From: a virus
IMG/VR virus record: IMGVR_UViG_3300032242_001694
Reading direction: 5' to 3' (one strand)
Length of the DNA: 64,000 bases
Shown piece by piece: positions 1,436-64,000 of the stretch (position 1 is the first letter of the stretch; each line of letters starts with the position of its first letter). The notes below the pieces were generated by a model. That model was not told where the DNA came from and ran no database searches. It saw only the letters and a program-made list of their open reading frames with translations. Position numbers and translations under genes: made by a program.

Positions 1436-3205
1436 TTATTTATTCTTAGCTACAATTTGAGTAGCTGATTTGTATCTAGCTTCGTCCTGCATCGAGCGAT
1501 TCTTCATCTTTTGGAAGTGCTGGACGTCTGCGAGGGCTTGGAACAGTCTGCTGGCTTTGTCGTCTGTAGCCGGAGTCTGGTCAGTATCTTGGTCATTGGC
1601 CAGAGGTTGAATCTGAGAGCCAGCCTGTGGCGGTGGAGCGGCTTCAGGCGCTGGTGGAGGTGCCGCAGCGGCAGCCGCCTGCTGCTGTTGTAAAGCTGCT
1701 TTCTGATCAGGGGTCATGTACTGCTCAATGCCCTGCTCGGCTTGGATCTCCATATCCAGCTCTTCCATCTCAGCGTCGCTTTGCTGGAGAACATTCTTTC
1801 TAACCCAAGCGTTCGAGTAGTAGCGGCCAACCTGATCCTGCATGAGGTTTCTAGCAAGGTTGACCCTGTTCTGCATAACTTCAGCGTCTTTAAGCTCGGT
1901 GAAGTAATTGTCTTTAGCGAAGTCAAACTTGATGTCTTGCTGGATATTATCCCAGTCTTCAATAGACATGATCTGCTTAAGGACCAGCTGCTTCTCCAGC
2001 ATTCTAGTGAATAGGATAGCAAACTTGTTGCGAAGCCTGATAACAAAGCGAGCAAACTTAAGCTCGTCTCTAGTTACTTCGGTTGCACGACCAAGCGAAA
2101 ACAGTGCATCTGAGTTAAGGCGATTGATAGGAACGTTAAGAGTTCCATAAAGCTTCTTCTGGAAATAGAGGACGTCGTCCATCTGACCAAGTGTCTGACC
2201 ACCGGGAAGCGTGGTAACTTCTGTACCGCGACCACCTTCACGACGAGGCAGCCAGTAGTCTTCAAGCATGGTTAAGAACTTGCGATCGTCGCGTACTTCA
2301 CCAGTCGAGCCGTCATAGATCAGGCGATTCTTATGCTTGACCATGATGTCGCGGAGGTACTGCTCAGCCTTCATCTTAGGAAGGTTGCCAACGTCGATAT
2401 ACCATACGCGGCGTTCTGGGGCACGAGCTAAGCGATAGATAACCAGAGCGTCTTCAAGGGTTCTCAGCTGGTTCAAAGCCTTGATAGCCTTGTGCATGTA
2501 GCCGAGAACCATGGTTCCCTGGGTGTCTGTTAAGCCTGATGTGACGTGGATGATTGAGTCGAGAGCAATCTTAAGACCAGAAGTCGCAGGACCGACGGTC
2601 TTGTTGCCGTAGTTGAATCCCTTGTCGTTAAAGACATAGTACTCGTTCTGAACTTTTTGAATTGAGACGTCGTGCAAGTCGTTTCCGGATCTTGCTTTTC
2701 TCTTGGTGATCTCGCGGATCTTTCTGATCTTACGCGGATCGATATACCTGATCTCTTTAATACCGGCTCTAGGATTGTTCTTATCAATCATAATATGGTA
2801 GTACAGGCGGCCATCGACGTACCAGCGGCGATAGATCTCATATGCATGTTTCTGGAAGTCTAAGATGTTAAGGCAGTTGGCAAACTCTTCGCGAATCATC
2901 TTCTTCAGATCTTCGCTGATCTTAACATTTTCTAAGTTGATGGAGACAATTGTCTTCTCATCAATAGAAAGAGTCTCATTAACAATTTCGTCAATAGCAG
3001 CGTCACACTCTGGCTGCAGTGACATCTCGCGATATTTAGTAACAAGCTCAGCTTCAGTTCTTACAGTCCCGTCAAGATCAACATAGGTACCAAACGAAGC
3101 ACCCGCTGCAACTACAACAGCCCCGTCTTCCTGCTCTTTAGGAGTGAATGACGGGATCTGATCTTGCTCTACTTTTCTTTCAAACTTGAAACCAAATAAT
3201 TCCAT
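1436..3205 (-). CDS. gp20: Portal vertex protein
   Basis: Motifs IRYIDPRKIRKIRE, LEDALVIYRLARAPERR, EDYWLPRREGGRGTEVTTLPGG. Confidence 0.97.
   Translation of the reverse strand: MELFGFKFERKVEQDQIPSFTPKEQEDGAVVVAAGASFGTYVDLDGTVRTEAELVTKYREMSLQPECDAAIDEIVNETLSIDEKTIVSINLENVKISEDLKKMIREEFANCLNILDFQKHAYEIYRRWYVDGRLYYHIMIDKNNPRAGIKEIRYIDPRKIRKIREITKRKARSGNDLHDVSIQKVQNEYYVFNDKGFNYGNKTVGPATSGLKIALDSIIHVTSGLTDTQGTMVLGYMHKAIKALNQLRTLEDALVIYRLARAPERRVWYIDVGNLPKMKAEQYLRDIMVKHKNRLIYDGSTGEVRDDRKFLTMLEDYWLPRREGGRGTEVTTLPGGQTLGQMDDVLYFQKKLYGTLNVPINRLNSDALFSLGRATEVTRDELKFARFVIRLRNKFAILFTRMLEKQLVLKQIMSIEDWDNIQQDIKFDFAKDNYFTELKDAEVMQNRVNLARNLMQDQVGRYYSNAWVRKNVLQQSDAEMEELDMEIQAEQGIEQYMTPDQKAALQQQQAAAAAAPPPAPEAAPPPQAGSQIQPLANDQDTDQTPATDDKASRLFQALADVQHFQKMKNRSMQDEARYKSATQIVAKNK
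1437..1444 (-). promoter_or_regulatory. T4-type late promoter variant (AATAAATA)
   Basis: ATAAATA core just upstream of the gp67 RBS. Confidence 0.5.
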
Positions 3206-52863: not shown

Positions 52864-53790
52864 TTACTTTGCTAATTTCTTGAAGAACTCAAGACCGTCG
52901 TCATCGTCATCCATAGGGATTGCCGACTTAGTCTTGAAAGACGGAGCCGGAGCTTCTTCAGCCCACGGAGCGGCATCCTCGGTAGCCTTAGCGACAACCG
53001 CATGAGCGTCGTTACGCATGGTCTGTGCGAGACCAGCCTTGTCCAAGCCGAGTACCTTATTCAGCTTAGCCTTAAGCTCGTCGTATGACTTGAACTTGCC
53101 CGGAGCAATAAACTCCTGCAGCGAGTGCTGCTTCTTCCATACAGCTTCCATCTCGTCATCGTCGTTAAAGAGTGCGCCTGCCTTGGCAAACTCAGACTTG
53201 TCGTAGTTGCGATAGCCTTCGACGTTGCGAATCTTAAGCTTGAAGTTAGCACCTTCCCAGAAGTCGAATGGGTTCAGAGCGTCTTCGTCGGCAAACTCAG
53301 GATTCATAGCCTCGTTGAGCTTGTCGAAGATCTTCTTGCCGTACTTGAATAAGAATACCTTACCCTCATTCTCGGGATTCTGTTGGTCGGTAATGACGTA
53401 GACGTTGCTGATGAAGTGAAGCTTGCGCTTCTGCTTGCGAGCAATTTCTTTGTCTGAGTCAAGACCGGTATTCCACAGAGTTGAGTTGAGCTCAGAAACC
53501 GGATCCTGCTTACCAATAGTGGTCAGCGAGTTCTCGATGTACCAAGAACCGGTCGGACCTTGGAAGCCATGCTCAAAGATACGAACGAAAGGAGTATCTT
53601 CATTTGGAGGAGGTGGAAGGAAGCGGATAACCGCGTAGCCGTTGCCAGCCTTGTCTACGTTGGGATACCAGAACCGATCGTCCTTCTTGTTATCGGTCTG
53701 TCCGCCACCCACGAGCTTGTTGAGCTCTGAGGTGAGTTTGTCCAGCGATGATTTGCCAGAGTTCTTCTTAAGTTGTGAAAAGTCAACCAT
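52864..53790 (-). CDS. gp32: Single-stranded DNA-binding protein
   Basis: DKAGNGYAVIRFLP, WYIENSLTT, YGKKIFDK, NYDKSEF, acidic tail. Confidence 0.96.
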   Translation of the reverse strand: MVDFSQLKKNSGKSSLDKLTSELNKLVGGGQTDNKKDDRFWYPNVDKAGNGYAVIRFLPPPPNEDTPFVRIFEHGFQGPTGSWYIENSLTTIGKQDPVSELNSTLWNTGLDSDKEIARKQKRKLHFISNVYVITDQQNPENEGKVFLFKYGKKIFDKLNEAMNPEFADEDALNPFDFWEGANFKLKIRNVEGYRNYDKSEFAKAGALFNDDDEMEAVWKKQHSLQEFIAPGKFKSYDELKAKLNKVLGLDKAGLAQTMRNDAHAVVAKATEDAAPWAEEAPAPSFKTKSAIPMDDDDDGLEFFKKLAK

Positions 53791-53883: not shown

Positions 53884-54108
53884 CTAAAAAGGTAGCTTGG
53901 CAGTCTTCTTGACGATGTTCATGTCCTCAGCCTCGATCTGAAGCTTTGACTTGAGAACTGGATCTTTCTTGATAATAGAGGCCGCGTACTCTACTTCGAC
54001 GCCATTCTTCTCACACCAAGACACGATAGCGTCTACGTACTCAAGGTGTCCGTGGCGTCTCATGGACTCGATGTCTGTTGCGAACTGGTTTGCACTGATA
54101 AGTTTCAT
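53884..54108 (-). CDS. gp33: Late transcription coactivator
   Basis: YVDAIVSWCEKNGVEVE..LKSKLQIEAEDMN..AKLPF. Confidence 0.85.
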   Translation of the reverse strand: MKLISANQFATDIESMRRHGHLEYVDAIVSWCEKNGVEVEYAASIIKKDPVLKSKLQIEAEDMNIVKKTAKLPF

Positions 54109-54290
54109 GTGTATCTCAAGACCTCTTTATCTTTCTTTAAAGTTATAGCGGCGTGTTGCCACTTGAGTTTCTCGTAGTAGTGAAACTCTAAAAAGTTAAA
54201 GAACTTCTCAGCTGAGGGCTGGTCATCAAAAAACTTGCGTTCAAAGAGCTTGCGGCTCTTCCCACGAACTTCAACTTTATAGGGTTTCAT
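54105..54290 (-). CDS. Hypothetical 61-aa protein
   Basis: ATG at 54290; the longer ORF-track call overlaps tRNA sequence. Confidence 0.55.
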   Translation of the reverse strand: MKPYKVEVRGKSRKLFERKFFDDQPSAEKFFNFLEFHYYEKLKWQHAAITLKKDKEVLRYT

Positions 54291-54320: not shown

Positions 54321-54358
54321 TGGTGGGAGCGGTGTGACTCGAACACACACTAAGACCC
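54321..54358 (-). pseudogene. 3' half of an interrupted tRNA
   Basis: GGGTC TTAGT GTGTG-TTCGAGT-CACAC CGCTCCC A CCA. Confidence 0.8.
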
Positions 54359-54367
54359 ATTGTTTAG

Positions 54368-54444
54368 TGGTGCCCCCACCAGGACTCGAACCTGGAACAA
54401 ATCCGTTATGAGCGAATGGCACTAACCAATTGTGCTATAGGGGC
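54368..54444 (-). tRNA. tRNA with CAT anticodon (Ile2/lysidine type or elongator Met)
   Basis: Full cloverleaf: GCCCCTA/TGGGGGC, GCAC/GTGC, ATTCG-CTCATAA-CGGAT, CCAGG-TTCGAGT-CCTGG, ACCA; lacks initiator features. Confidence 0.92.
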
Positions 54445-54489
54445 TTATTCTTTTTTCTAAGCCAAGCTTCTTTAACTGCTTTCCTCCAA

Positions 54490-54513
54490 GCTTCACCTTT
54501 AAGCTACGCTCCC
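54490..54513 (-). pseudogene. 5' half of an interrupted tRNA
   Basis: GGGAGCG TA GCTT-AAAGGTG-AAGC; acceptor strand is perfectly complementary to CGCTCCC at 54331-54325. Confidence 0.8.
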
Positions 54514-54532
54514 AATACTTGATTATATAGTT

Positions 54533-54561
54533 ATTATATATTATTTTTCTGGAAATGTCAA
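54533..54561 (-). promoter_or_regulatory. Perfect sigma70 consensus promoter
   Basis: TTGACA (54561-54556), 17-nt spacer, TATAAT (54538-54533), 20 nt before the tRNA 5' half. Confidence 0.9.
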
Positions 54562-54568
54562 CTAAAAA

Positions 54569-55561
54569 TTAGAAGCAGGTGATGATTACTAAGCCGGGAC
54601 CACCGTTTCCGCCACTGCCAGCTACTGATCCTGAACTATTAAAACAACCACCGCCGCCGCCGCCACCGCCGCCATAACCACCAGTACCACCTGCTCCACC
54701 TGTAGAACCAGCTGCTGCAGCGCCACCGCTTGAACCACCACCCGCTCCGCCGTAGTAATAATTTAGATTTGGAATAGCTTTATAACCACTGGGCCCTGGA
54801 AATCCAGAACCACCAGTTGAACCAGCTAATGGCCCACCGACATGGGCAGGAAATACTCCACCTGCCGGCACAATTAAACCACCCCCTGTAAATCCGGTGC
54901 TTCCAGACGTGCCAACTCCAGCACCGCCGCCGCCACCTGTAACAACTAACCCAGTTACAGGTAAATTTAATGAGAGGCCAGGACCACCAACTCCTGAACC
55001 GCCATTATTACCACCTTGACCAGCTAAAGTTATATTACCAACAGCAACAGCGGTCAAACTCATTCCTAATCCAGCTAATGGTGCGGCTGCTAAAGTATTT
55101 ACTGCAGCAGTTAGTCCACCAGTACCAGCAGTCCCGGCCAATCCACCCGTGCCACCTTGGGTAACTCCGCCGCCAGAAGCAATACCTAAAAGATGATTTA
55201 CAGTAATATCTGGATAGATTGAAGCATAAGTTGCTATACCTACAGCGCCTGCTGTGCTAGGAGCTCCGCCCGTTCCGCCAATACCAACAGAAAAATAGAG
55301 AACATCTGGCAATAGAGCTGCTGGAAATAGAAAGTTATACTGGTTGCCAGAAGCACCACCGCCTCCACCCGCATTGATACTAGCAGCTCCAGTTACTCCG
55401 CCACCACCGCCACTACCACCACCAAGCATAAAGATATTGATCATATTCGTGCCAGTTGGCTTTTGCCATTCATACCAACTAGCACCAGCAGTAGTAGAGT
55501 TGCCAACAAATATCTGCTGATCTAATCTTCTATTAGGCTGTGATATATGAGAAAAATCCAT
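54569..55561 (-). CDS. Glycine-rich protein, paralog 1
   Basis: WYEWQKPTG..MINIFMLGGGSGGG, polyglycine runs, GPGLVIITCF. Confidence 0.8.
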   Translation of the reverse strand: MDFSHISQPNRRLDQQIFVGNSTTAGASWYEWQKPTGTNMINIFMLGGGSGGGGGVTGAASINAGGGGGASGNQYNFLFPAALLPDVLYFSVGIGGTGGAPSTAGAVGIATYASIYPDITVNHLLGIASGGGVTQGGTGGLAGTAGTGGLTAAVNTLAAAPLAGLGMSLTAVAVGNITLAGQGGNNGGSGVGGPGLSLNLPVTGLVVTGGGGGAGVGTSGSTGFTGGGLIVPAGGVFPAHVGGPLAGSTGGSGFPGPSGYKAIPNLNYYYGGAGGGSSGGAAAAGSTGGAGGTGGYGGGGGGGGGCFNSSGSVAGSGGNGGPGLVIITCF

Positions 55562-55570
55562 TTTACTTCC

Positions 55571-56527
55571 TCAAAAACAAGTTACTATAACTAGACCTGG
55601 ACCACCGGAGCCGCCCAGCCCGCCGGCTCCACTAGTACCTGCACCTGCACCACCACCGCCGCCCCCACAACCATAATAACCATCACCACCTCTACCGCCT
55701 ACTCCGAACGGAAGCGCGCCAGAACTACCGCCACCACCGCCACCCGTGCCTCCATAAAAATAATTTAGACCTGGTAATTTTATTCCATTACTACCGCTAC
55801 TAGCGTTAACGCTTCCCGCTGAGTTTATACCACCGACACCACCGACTAATGTTGGAAAAGTACCAGTAACCGTTGACGGTATTGATGCTGAGTTTGCACC
55901 ACTGGCAGCAGCGGTAGCAGCGCTGTTGCCCCCGCCACTTCCGCCGGTAACGATCAAGCCAGTTACTGGTAAAGCAAAAGTAGTAGCACCACCAGCAGTT
56001 CCAGCTTGACCAGTTAAAGATATATTACCAACTGCTGCAGCGCATAAATTCATGCCTAAACCAGCTAATGGAGCTGCTGTTATGTTATCAGCAGCAGTAG
56101 CTGTACCACCAGTATAAGTTGAGAATCCAGAGCCGCCACCCCCGCCTGAAGCAATTCCTAGAAGATGACTTGCAGTAGTGGTAGGATAAATTGAGGCATA
56201 AGATGCTACTCCAGACGAGGCAGCGCCAGCAGATGCAGGAGGAGATCCGCCAATTCCAACAGAAAAATATAGAACATCTGGTATAGAAGAAGCTAAAAAT
56301 AGAAAGTTATACTGGTTACCAGAAGCTCCACCGCCTCCAGCGCCAGGCTGAGTGCCATTTGGACCATTACCTGCACCTCCACCGCCACCAAGCATAAAGA
56401 TATTGATCATGTTTATACCGCGTGGCTTTATCCACTCGTACCACCTGCTGCCGGCAGAATCAGAATTGCCATAAAATATCTGCTGATCTGATCTAACATT
56501 GTTTGGTAAGTTAAAAAAATCTAACAT
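55571..56527 (-). CDS. Glycine-rich protein, paralog 2
   Basis: Same scaffold; ends GPGLVIVTCF. Confidence 0.8.
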   Translation of the reverse strand: MLDFFNLPNNVRSDQQIFYGNSDSAGSRWYEWIKPRGINMINIFMLGGGGGAGNGPNGTQPGAGGGGASGNQYNFLFLASSIPDVLYFSVGIGGSPPASAGAASSGVASYASIYPTTTASHLLGIASGGGGGSGFSTYTGGTATAADNITAAPLAGLGMNLCAAAVGNISLTGQAGTAGGATTFALPVTGLIVTGGSGGGNSAATAAASGANSASIPSTVTGTFPTLVGGVGGINSAGSVNASSGSNGIKLPGLNYFYGGTGGGGGGSSGALPFGVGGRGGDGYYGCGGGGGGAGAGTSGAGGLGGSGGPGLVIVTCF

Positions 56528-56536
56528 TCAATTTCC

Positions 56537-57472
56537 TTAAAAACAAGTTACTATGACTAGACCTGAACCACCCGCTCCACCCAAACCAGCAGCACCGTTA
56601 GGTTGAGCAGACGATCCGCCTCCTCCTCCACCACCGCAACCATAAGAACCATCGCCGCCATTACCCGCGCGTGCACCATTGCCACCTGCAGACGCGATGC
56701 CACTTCCACCAGCACCAGCTCCACCAAGAAAAAAACGTAATCTAGGAAGTAAAGATATTCCATTAGATCCATTATCAGAAGGACCGCTAACAGTGCCAGC
56801 ACTTCCAGAAATTGCAGGAAAAAATGGAGCAGATGCAGTTCGGCTAGACCCAGAGCCCCCGCCACTTGGCCCTGTTCCACCACCGCCAGCTCCGCCACTC
56901 ATGCCACCTGTCACTACTAGCCCTGTCGTTGGTAGTAAATTCACTTGACCGGCTTGTCCTGTTAGAGATATATTACCAGCAGCTGCAGTGCACAAACTTA
57001 TACCTAAAGAAGCTAATGGAGCTGCTGCTATAAGATCTGCAGCAGCAACAGTACCAGCAGTTCCTACAGTTTGAGAAGAAGAACCACCACCTCCTGCGTT
57101 GCCACCAGAAGCAATACCAAGAAGATAATTTGCAGTAGTGGCTGGATAAATTGAAGCATATGTTGCTATGCCAGCTAAAACAGTCCTTCCTACACCAACA
57201 GAAAAATAGAGAACATCTGGCAATAGAGCTGCTGGAAATAGAAAGTTATACTGGTTGCCAGAAGCGCCACCACCGCCGCCACCACCGCCGCCAGAAATTG
57301 CTAGACCATTACCGCCACCGCCACCGCCACCAAGCATGAATATGTTGATCATGTTTATACCGCGTGGCTTTATCCACTCGTACCAGCTGCTTCCAGCACT
57401 AGTAGAGTTACCAACAAATATCTGCTGATCGAAACCTTTTCGGTTAGTTGGCAGATTAAAGAAGTCAAGCAT
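56537..57472 (-). CDS. Glycine-rich protein, paralog 3
   Basis: Same scaffold; ends GSGLVIVTCF. Confidence 0.8.
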   Translation of the reverse strand: MLDFFNLPTNRKGFDQQIFVGNSTSAGSSWYEWIKPRGINMINIFMLGGGGGGGNGLAISGGGGGGGGGASGNQYNFLFPAALLPDVLYFSVGVGRTVLAGIATYASIYPATTANYLLGIASGGNAGGGGSSSQTVGTAGTVAAADLIAAAPLASLGISLCTAAAGNISLTGQAGQVNLLPTTGLVVTGGMSGGAGGGGTGPSGGGSGSSRTASAPFFPAISGSAGTVSGPSDNGSNGISLLPRLRFFLGGAGAGGSGIASAGGNGARAGNGGDGSYGCGGGGGGGSSAQPNGAAGLGGAGGSGLVIVTCF

Positions 57473-63346: not shown

Positions 63347-63423
63347 TGGCGACCCCTGCACGACTCGAACGTGCGGCCTACAGATTAGAAGTCTGTTGCT
63401 CTATCCAGCTGAGCTAAGGGGCC
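63347..63423 (-). tRNA. tRNA-Arg(TCT)
   Basis: GGCCCCT/AGGGGTC, GCTC/GAGC, ACAGA-CTTCTAA-TCTGT, GCACG-TTCGAGT-CGTGC, GCCA. Confidence 0.95.
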
Positions 63424-63483
63424 TATTCTTTGGATCAATCCGTAATATATATCAGCTTCAAAATGTCATATTAAAAAGAACTT

Positions 63484-63521
63484 GTGGGGAGATTCTGTTT
63501 CTAAGCTCTCCCCGAGCTCAT
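63484..63521 (-). repeat. 38-bp direct repeat, copy downstream of the small ORF
   Basis: 37/38 identical to 63762-63799. Confidence 0.95.
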
Positions 63522-63526
63522 ATTAC

Positions 63527-63727
63527 TTATTTCTTTTCGGCAAATGCCTTGATGGCTTCAGCCAAAGCAAAGATCTCTTCTTCATCTGGATATGCGGGAT
63601 ACACTCCAGCGAACCCATCTTCTTTTCTAATTACTGCTTCATTGAATTTAGCGTGGTAGCCATTCTGCAGTTGCTCGCGCGCAGCCATGTAATATTGAAA
63701 GCGCATTTCGTAAGGTGTAGCTGTCAT
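63527..63727 (-). CDS. Hypothetical 66-aa protein
   Basis: AAAGGA RBS after a CA-rich leader; MTATPYEMRF...YPDEEEIFALAEAIKAFAEKK. Confidence 0.75.
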   Translation of the reverse strand: MTATPYEMRFQYYMAAREQLQNGYHAKFNEAVIRKEDGFAGVYPAYPDEEEIFALAEAIKAFAEKK

Positions 63728-63761
63728 AGTTAGTTCCTTTCTGTGTGTGTTGTGTGTAGTA

Positions 63762-63799
63762 GTGGGGAGATTCTGTTTCCAAGCTCTCCCCGAGCTCAT
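63762..63799 (-). repeat. 38-bp direct repeat, copy at the tmRNA coding-piece 3' end
   Basis: ATGAGCTCGGGGAGAGCTTGGAAACAGAATCTCCCCAC. Confidence 0.95.
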
Positions 63800-64000
63800 T
63801 CTTAGGCAGCTAGTGCATAAGAGATAGGTGCATTATCGTTTGCATCTGTAACGTTTGCCATGATCTCAGTAGTACCTTTATCACACCTGTCGATCCTATT
63901 TCGCCCCCATCAAAGATACACGCGTTTGGATTCGAACCATGTTCTAGTCTTCTCGATCTGCGCTTCCCACAGTGCTGACCCGTGTATCCGTGGTGGAGGC
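63762..64000 (-). ncRNA. ssrA: Circularly permuted (two-piece) tmRNA; acceptor piece truncated by the window edge
   Basis: GCCTCCACCA (64000-63991), then an 82-nt intervening segment, then GGGGGCGAAATAGGATCGAC (from 63908); G3.U70 and A73 alanine identity; tag frame 63843-63802 ANDNAPISYALAA*. Confidence 0.92.

Follow-up and report, generated by a model that had tools for sequence, protein, structure and literature searches.

The nested tRNA genes that lie upstream of gp33 and gp32 in an uncultured T4-like phage are best explained as a fresh recombination scar, a reading to which we give a probability of roughly 85%. A resident tRNA(CAU) gene, here called X, has been broken by a small patch carrying a replacement tRNA(CAU), and the arrangement does not look like a designed precursor. 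Because both outer remnants match an uninterrupted gene of sibling phages, the outer element is a tRNA(CAU) gene that was overwritten by a different tRNA(CAU). The site belongs to a 64,000-nt stretch of IMG/VR record IMGVR_UViG_3300032242_001694, the whole of which is referred to below as the window. A preliminary description of the site had offered two interpretations, namely that an inserted tRNA had recently taken the place of another tRNA, or that the site is a functional precursor giving rise to a two-piece tRNA mimic. The comparisons presented here bear out the first and lend no support to the second, the outer halves being conserved only as parts of an intact tRNA.

Layout of the Nested Site

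The site is located on the minus strand of a contig that can be assigned to a T4-like phage because of its gp32 gene. Genes for tail-tube, sheath-stabilizer, baseplate, head-closure, and small-terminase proteins are also encoded in the window, and the closest isolates by DNA are Synechococcus myophages, with 74–79% identity over parts of gp32 only. On the minus strand, the elements follow one another 5' to 3' in the order previously described, as promoter, outer 5' part, spacer, inner tRNA(CAT), filler, and outer 3' part. The promoter is of the sigma-70 type, TTGACA-17-TATAAT (54533..54561, minus strand; TTGACA at 54561–54556 and TATAAT at 54538–54533), with 12/12 consensus positions. Perfect promoter sites of this kind occur twice in the 64-kb window, compared with 0.03 expected by chance. 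A leader of ~13 nt separates the promoter from G1 of the outer tRNA.

The 5' remnant of X comprises 24 nt (54490..54513, minus strand). It reads GGGAGCG-TA-GCTT-AAAGGTG-AAGC (54513–54490) and holds the acceptor strand GGGAGCG, U8, A9, the D stem GCTT/AAGC, and a D loop with GG. Following it on the same strand are a 45-nt spacer of non-tRNA sequence (54445..54489), an intact tRNA(CAT) of 77 nt with an encoded CCA (54368..54444), the 10-nt filler CTAAACAATG (54358..54367), and the 37-nt 3' remnant of X (54321..54357). The last of these, GGTC-TTAGT-GTGTG-TTCGAGT-CACAC-CGCTCCC-A-CCA (54357–54321), retains four of the five nucleotides of the anticodon-stem 3' strand, the variable loop TTAGT, and an intact T arm (GTGTG-TTCGAGT-CACAC), and ends with CGCTCCC, A73, and CCA. 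The spacer length agrees with that given in the preliminary description; the filler had been given as 9 nt and measures 10 nt (54367–54358) by comparison with the intact allele described below.

The inner element is recognized as a tRNA both by Rfam (RF00005, 60.6 bits against a threshold of 29, model positions 1–71) and by ARAGORN, which calls it tRNA-Met(cat), in agreement with its earlier description as intact. The outer element as present in the window is called by neither program. Its two pieces together nonetheless keep a 7/7 acceptor stem, whole D and T arms, and the nucleotides U8, A14, G18 G19, T54 T55 C56, and A58; the pairing and the intactness of both arms had been pointed out before. 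A strict scan, in which a perfect 5-bp T stem, a T-loop consensus, NCCA, and a perfect 7/7 acceptor partner at most 300 nt away were required, returned this site alone in the window and had no matches in 200 shuffles.

Directly downstream of the outer 3' part is a 61-aa ORF, preceded by a ribosome-binding site (ORF at 54105..54290, minus strand), that matches no family and served as the anchor for finding sibling alleles. It is followed on the same strand by genes for a gp33-like late-transcription coactivator (53884..54108; Pfam PF16805, E 1e-17; phrog_254) and the gp32 single-stranded DNA-binding protein (52864..53790; Pfam PF08804, E 9e-46; phrog_224, E 6e-116). A search for a terminator-like site after the nested tRNA found none.

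The same phage encodes a tRNA-Arg(TCT) (63347..63423, minus strand; ARAGORN and Rfam) and a two-piece tmRNA, each 9 kb from the nested site. Unlike in the window, tRNA-Arg(TCT) adjoins the tRNA(CAT) gene in the relatives L002, L003, L027, L029, and L030. Two further observations concern this region. The motif AAAGAATA precedes both tRNA-Arg(TCT) (63424–63431) and the inner tRNA(CAT) (54445–54452) on the minus strand, either as a shared leader motif or by chance. The hairpin GAGCTCGGGGAGAGCTTgGAAACAGAATCTCCCCAC that follows the tag stop of the tmRNA recurs nearly unchanged behind a 66-aa ORF ~280 nt downstream (63484–63800, minus strand), as would another small insertion that duplicated the 3' end of an RNA gene, in parallel with the tRNA case.

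An Intact Copy of X in Sibling Phages

Sibling contigs were found via homologues of the 61-aa ORF, which fall into two sister clusters with 97% and 93% identity. Three of these contigs (L166, L167, and L168), from three other samples, share the promoter and the downstream 61-aa ORF, gp33, and gp32 with the window. Between the promoter and these genes they hold a normal 75-nt tRNA, GGGAGCGTAGCTTAAAGGTGAAGC-CGACCGCTCATAAC-GGTCTTAGTGTGTGTTCGAGTCACACCGCTCCCACCA, called tRNA-Met(cat) by ARAGORN; this is the uninterrupted outer tRNA for which a search of related genomes had been suggested, and its anticodon is CAT. The outer pieces in the window correspond exactly to positions 1–25 and 40–76 of this tRNA. 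Compared with the intact allele, the window has lost exactly 14 nt (positions 26–39, that is, C26, the 5' strand of the anticodon stem, the loop CTCATAA, and C39) and gained 132 nt, the spacer and filler being missing from the intact allele; the blastn match to L166 stops at 54490 and resumes at 54357. No contiguous cloverleaf with an anticodon arm is left in the outer element of the window, which is a disrupted gene.

The promoter sequence precedes the intact outer tRNA in all three siblings with few or no changed letters. It thus belongs to the outer tRNA itself, and the inner tRNA would now be under its control. The ancestor of the window phage had one tRNA(CAU) gene, X, with its own strong promoter, just upstream of the small ORF, gp33, and gp32. 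As a single intact allele was found, an origin from two tandem copies of X with two deletions was dropped from consideration. The outer remnants show no decay, which fits a recent event; selection on the remnants would fit too.

Neither outer half has an exact match in IMG/VR, and a metagenome scan with a 20-mer from the outer T arm and acceptor stem returned only three chance matches, in GC-rich DNA or an unrelated tRNA. The outer acceptor stem is shared by 59 tRNAs, mostly of Lys or Tyr types, all of them unrelated to X.

The downstream flanks of the window and its siblings are 91–96% identical. Upstream, three Gly-rich paralogues (54569–57472, minus strand) are 82–86% identical to those of L166 and L168, compared with 91–96% on the gp33–gp32 side. 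Divergence is therefore uneven on the two sides, and the tRNA gene marks a border between a fast-changing fiber module and a conserved replication module.

Source and Joints of the Patch

The 132-nt patch, which contains no ORF, consists of a complete tRNA(CAU) distinct from X, preceded by 45 nt of upstream sequence and followed by 10 nt. Its tRNA is an ordinary stand-alone gene in the IMG/VR contig L145, from which it differs by 2 nt, and has no match in bacterial genomes. For the 45-nt spacer only short, suggestive matches were obtained: its start, TTGGAGGAAAG, is the sequence after tRNA-Arg in L038–L042, and its end, CTTGG..AGAAAAAAGAA.TAA, is similar to what precedes tRNA(CAT) in L011 and L012. 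Because of these short matches at the two spacer ends, the donor segment may have been a collapsed inter-tRNA region together with a tRNA(CAT). The spacer itself may be the collapsed remnant of a Shine–Dalgarno site and the 3' end of a small ORF that precede tRNA(CAT) in relatives, both proposals being only suggestive. A donor with the exact flanks of the patch is absent from every collection searched, no source was found for the 10-nt filler, and the similarity of the spacer to the end of a 244-aa ORF in L010 (described below) is not significant.

Microhomology at the joints is minimal, being GAAGC on the left and G or GG on the right, and the left junction contains a 9-nt repeat, GAAGCTTGG, with copies 24 nt apart. 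The two joints lie at most 14 nt apart within a 75-nt gene, and the short insert between them has foreign flanks. This geometry agrees best with a break, or a switch of template, within the anticodon arm. A co-infecting relative was most likely the donor, with its tRNA(CAU) locus as the template, and we infer that copying took place through break repair or template switching in that arm, with joints formed at very short homologies.

Apart from tRNA, no RNA family was detected in the insert by Rfam, and no intron family matched at E values up to 10; a mascRNA match (E 0.055) was dismissed as expected tRNA-like noise. Several other candidates were considered for the site and rejected. A group I intron in the tRNA is incompatible with the deletion of 14 nt including the anticodon, as removal of the insert restores no anticodon arm, and no intron family match was obtained. 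Integrase-mediated insertion does not agree with a 132-nt insert without an ORF, nor with inner and outer 3' parts that differ in sequence. A tmRNA or two-piece tmRNA at the nested site was discarded since the outer acceptor stem has the pair G3–C70, as against G3:U70 in tmRNA, and neither ARAGORN nor Rfam calls one there. A tmRNA-like tag frame after GGAGGA in the spacer likewise fails, its peptide lacking the usual tag ending, with no G3:U70 and no tool calling a tmRNA.

Repeated Allele Exchange at tRNA(CAT) in Relatives

We collected 80 relatives through gp32. Most of those with upstream sequence carry tRNA-Arg(TCT) upstream of gp32, often together with a permuted tmRNA and a tRNA(CAT). Comparable scars are present in several of them. 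In L010, L011, and L012, a full tRNA(CAT) is followed by AATACA and then by CGGTCTGGTT...TGGCCCCACCA, which are positions 39–76 of a tRNA that is intact in L009. The same incoming tRNA and AATACA are joined at the same position in L027 and L029, here onto CGGATTGGTT...TCGGTCCACCA, the 3' part of a tRNA that is intact in L030. In L153, a full tRNA(CAT) and 15 nt precede a remnant that starts from near position 48 (break near 48|49), and in contigs of the L018 type a tRNA(CAT) without U8 precedes the 12-nt remnant CTACCCCTACCA. The 3' remnants of the relatives are thus 12, 29, and 38 nt long, and none has a 5' partner. Two different resident alleles are broken at 38|39 and that of the window at 39|40, the other breakpoints lying near 48 and ~65.

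Allele exchange is also evident without a remnant. In L001, the closest IMG/VR relative (gp32 89% identical), a quite different tRNA(CAT) ends at the last base of X, and homology between L001 and the window begins exactly where L001's tRNA(CAT) and X end. The tRNA(CAT) alleles are moreover mosaic, as in L038 and L042, which have acceptor and T arms in common and different D and anticodon arms. These comparisons of gene sequences show that alleles have repeatedly been replaced at the tRNA(CAU) gene of these phages, with 3' remnants of the displaced gene left in place. The window is the one case that keeps a 5' piece too, because the left joint fell inside the gene.

Some features of the relatives are of separate interest. 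The incoming tRNA(CAT) of L010 was inserted together with a 244-aa ORF (2334–3068; phrog_17480, function not assigned; no Pfam match) that is absent from the sibling L009 and known from this one contig only. L011 and L012 appear to be deletion derivatives in which the preceding 98-aa ORF is fused to a new short end. The U8-less element of L018 (2705–2784; also in L021, L022, and L023) is tRNA(CAT)-like, with AA for U8–A9 and a G7–A66 mismatch, and ARAGORN makes no call there; its 12-nt companion CTACCCCTACCA (2789–2800) is a remnant from the 3' end of another tRNA and is placed after TTTTTTCG. In four unrelated viral contigs (L162–L165), only the 3' part of a tRNA-Met is present, from the anticodon stem onward (...CTCATAACGGTCTGGTT...CCACCA) and with no 5' half, which is the classical attP look of integrating phages.

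Many relatives, and not the window, also encode a tRNA of 92–95 nt with anticodon UAU, a 6-bp anticodon stem, a long variable arm, and A73, which ARAGORN calls tRNA-Ile(tat) (L009:2708–2799, L010:1929–2020, L011:2866–2957, L012:2235–2328, L034:2054–2145, L047:185–278, and L063:413–507). Isoleucine tRNAs normally lack a long variable arm, and the charging identity of this tRNA is therefore in question; Leu-like or Ser-like charging is conceivable.

Expected Expression of the Replaced Locus

Transcription from the X promoter would start ~13 nt before the old G1. As no terminator-like site follows, the transcript probably continues through the inner tRNA into the 61-aa ORF, gp33, and gp32. The 5' piece of X and the spacer would become a 5' leader, to be removed by RNase P at the 5' end of the inner tRNA. 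RNase P may cut at the old G1 too, because a helix of acceptor stem and T arm is predicted still to be able to form. The 3' piece of X would become a 3' trailer or part of the 5' untranslated region of the downstream mRNA.

The inner tRNA is presumably the working gene, and the phage accordingly appears to retain exactly one usable tRNA(CAU), beside tRNA-Arg(UCU). The event would have survived because of this retention; an insertion that killed X without providing a substitute would probably have been lost. In the genes of the window, AGA makes up 59% of Arg codons and ATA 16% of Ile codons, a codon use that fits selection to keep the pair of tRNA-Arg(UCU) and tRNA(CAU). By analogy with T4, the CAU tRNA may be of the lysidine-dependent Ile2 type.

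Alternative Explanations

The preliminary description had named a chimeric assembly of two strain variants as a finding that would overturn it. Variants carrying the outer or the inner tRNA do circulate, X being intact in L166–L168 and the inner tRNA standing alone in L145, and yet we consider a chimera hardly credible. Look-ups of exact proteins with gp33 and the 61-aa ORF led to an ENA scaffold (L159) and a Logan contig (L160, run ERR2848516), independent assemblies in which the 193-nt arrangement is 100% identical to that of the window, and a further contig, seen in two samples and compared by gene calls alone, has matching gene calls. The junctions have at most 9 nt in common, far below the k-mer sizes of assemblers, the 45-nt spacer and the 10-nt filler are found in neither known variant, and comparable scars were assembled independently from several samples. 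A functional composite precursor is improbable on other grounds. Under this proposal, the outer pieces would stay paired after release of the inner tRNA by RNase P and 3' processing, held together by the 7-bp acceptor stem and contacts between D and T loops, and would form a CCA-ended two-piece tRNA mimic without an anticodon. The complete acceptor stem, D arm, T arm, and tertiary-contact nucleotides are what such a mimic would need, the strong promoter 13 nt upstream would express it, and the genome does encode a two-piece tmRNA. The outer acceptor stem is formed in the predicted minimum-energy fold as well, but that fold is no more stable than those of shuffles (z −1.4), and the intactness of the pieces is fully explained by their identity to a working tRNA of the siblings. 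Only a single strain is known to have the nested form; as it has no diverged copies, there is no covariation, nor do we see any sign of selection on the pieces. The partnerless remnants of the relatives look like debris, and G3–C70 excludes alanine charging of the tmRNA type.

A third proposal accepts the scar and differs in its cause. A trans-acting nuclease of the homing type, comparable with SegB of T4, might cut tRNA(CAU) DNA at the 3' edge of the anticodon loop, and repair from a co-infecting phage would then copy that phage's tRNA(CAU) allele, which would amount to a selfish drive for tRNA alleles. We judge this rather unlikely. In its favor is the clustering of breakpoints at 38|39 in two residents and 39|40 in the window. 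In particular, two residents have received the same incoming tRNA and 6-nt filler at the same base (AATACA|CGG), which homologous exchange hardly explains because it would need a crossover inside 3 nt. T4 SegB provides the precedent of an enzyme that recognizes tRNA-gene sequence and drives the inheritance of neighboring tRNAs (PMC2330249), and the incoming tRNA of L010 travels with the 244-aa ORF mentioned above. Against this, the patch, the 244-aa ORF of L010, and the scanned ORFs of the 64-kb window, which represents part of a genome of ~150 kb, gave no match to GIY-YIG, HNH, or any other family of nucleases. The PHROGs scan took in the non-embedded window ORFs of 70–420 aa and two 590-aa peptidase ORFs, and the Pfam scan the nine ORFs around the nested locus. 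Other remnants break elsewhere, near position 48 and ~65, and the incoming tRNAs share the CGCTCATAACGG core of the residents, so that they would be cut as well unless recognition reaches into the stems. Copying of a patch from a co-infecting relative by break repair or template switching is the reading that we prefer.

Comparison with Known Systems

The closest parallel is the homing endonuclease SegB of T4, which drives preferred inheritance of a tRNA gene region (Brok-Volchanskaya et al. 2008, PMC2330249). Both cases involve T4-like phages in which the tRNA genes of one replace those of a co-infecting relative, with joints in or beside tRNA genes and a role for conserved tRNA sequence. Unlike in T4, we found no nuclease gene in or near the patch or among the scanned ORFs of the 64-kb window. 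SegB recognizes the T-loop region, whereas breaks in the window and its relatives cluster at the anticodon arm, and here the displaced gene persists as two flanking pieces. The site represents the replacement of tRNA genes in T4-like phages reduced to a minimum and lacking a nuclease.

Integrating elements leave nonfunctional tRNA fragments at attL and attR, with the usual breaks in the anticodon loop and T loop (van der Gulik et al., bioRxiv 10.1101/2022.07.05.498093), and resemble the present case in that a partial tRNA gene stands beside a complete one. The window differs in lacking both an integrase and an island, and no tRNA part occurs twice as a direct repeat. The insert, just 132 nt long, is a tRNA in its own right, and the gene that came in is another allele than the one it displaced, though with an identical anticodon. 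Split, permuted, and intron-containing tRNAs, such as archaeal split tRNAs and bacterial tRNAs with group I introns, share with the nested site the separation of the halves in the DNA and the interruption at the anticodon arm. The window lacks 14 nt including the anticodon, however, so that no splicing restores a tRNA, and there is neither an intron family match nor a bulge–helix–bulge context in this bacteriophage. A two-piece tmRNA would likewise be a two-piece RNA joined by an acceptor stem and with a CCA end, but the nested gene order is not permuted, the acceptor stem has G3–C70, and the pieces are identical to those of an ordinary tRNA(CAU).

Implications for Phage tRNA Genes

The site reveals no new class of RNA. 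Its value lies in a clean matched pair of an intact and a replaced allele, which shows the turnover of a phage tRNA gene and a mode by which it occurs: a complete tRNA of identical anticodon is inserted into the resident gene, whose halves persist as dead pieces. For annotation it is a warning that perfect stems do not by themselves make an orphan tRNA half functional. There is a slim chance, given that the strong promoter of X and the tertiary-contact nucleotides of the outer pieces are untouched, that infected cells accumulate a CCA-ended two-piece tRNA-like RNA without an anticodon, which could have acquired a role, for instance as a decoy for tRNA-binding host factors. Separate from such an RNA, and more likely, is the idea that the clustered breakpoints may reveal a nuclease that targets the DNA of tRNA(CAU) genes and drives allele replacement among freshwater T4-like phages. 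The comparison singles out the tRNA(CAU) gene of this phage group as a hot spot of recombination whose breakpoints cluster in an odd way, and the clustering could lead to a nuclease specific for tRNA genes.
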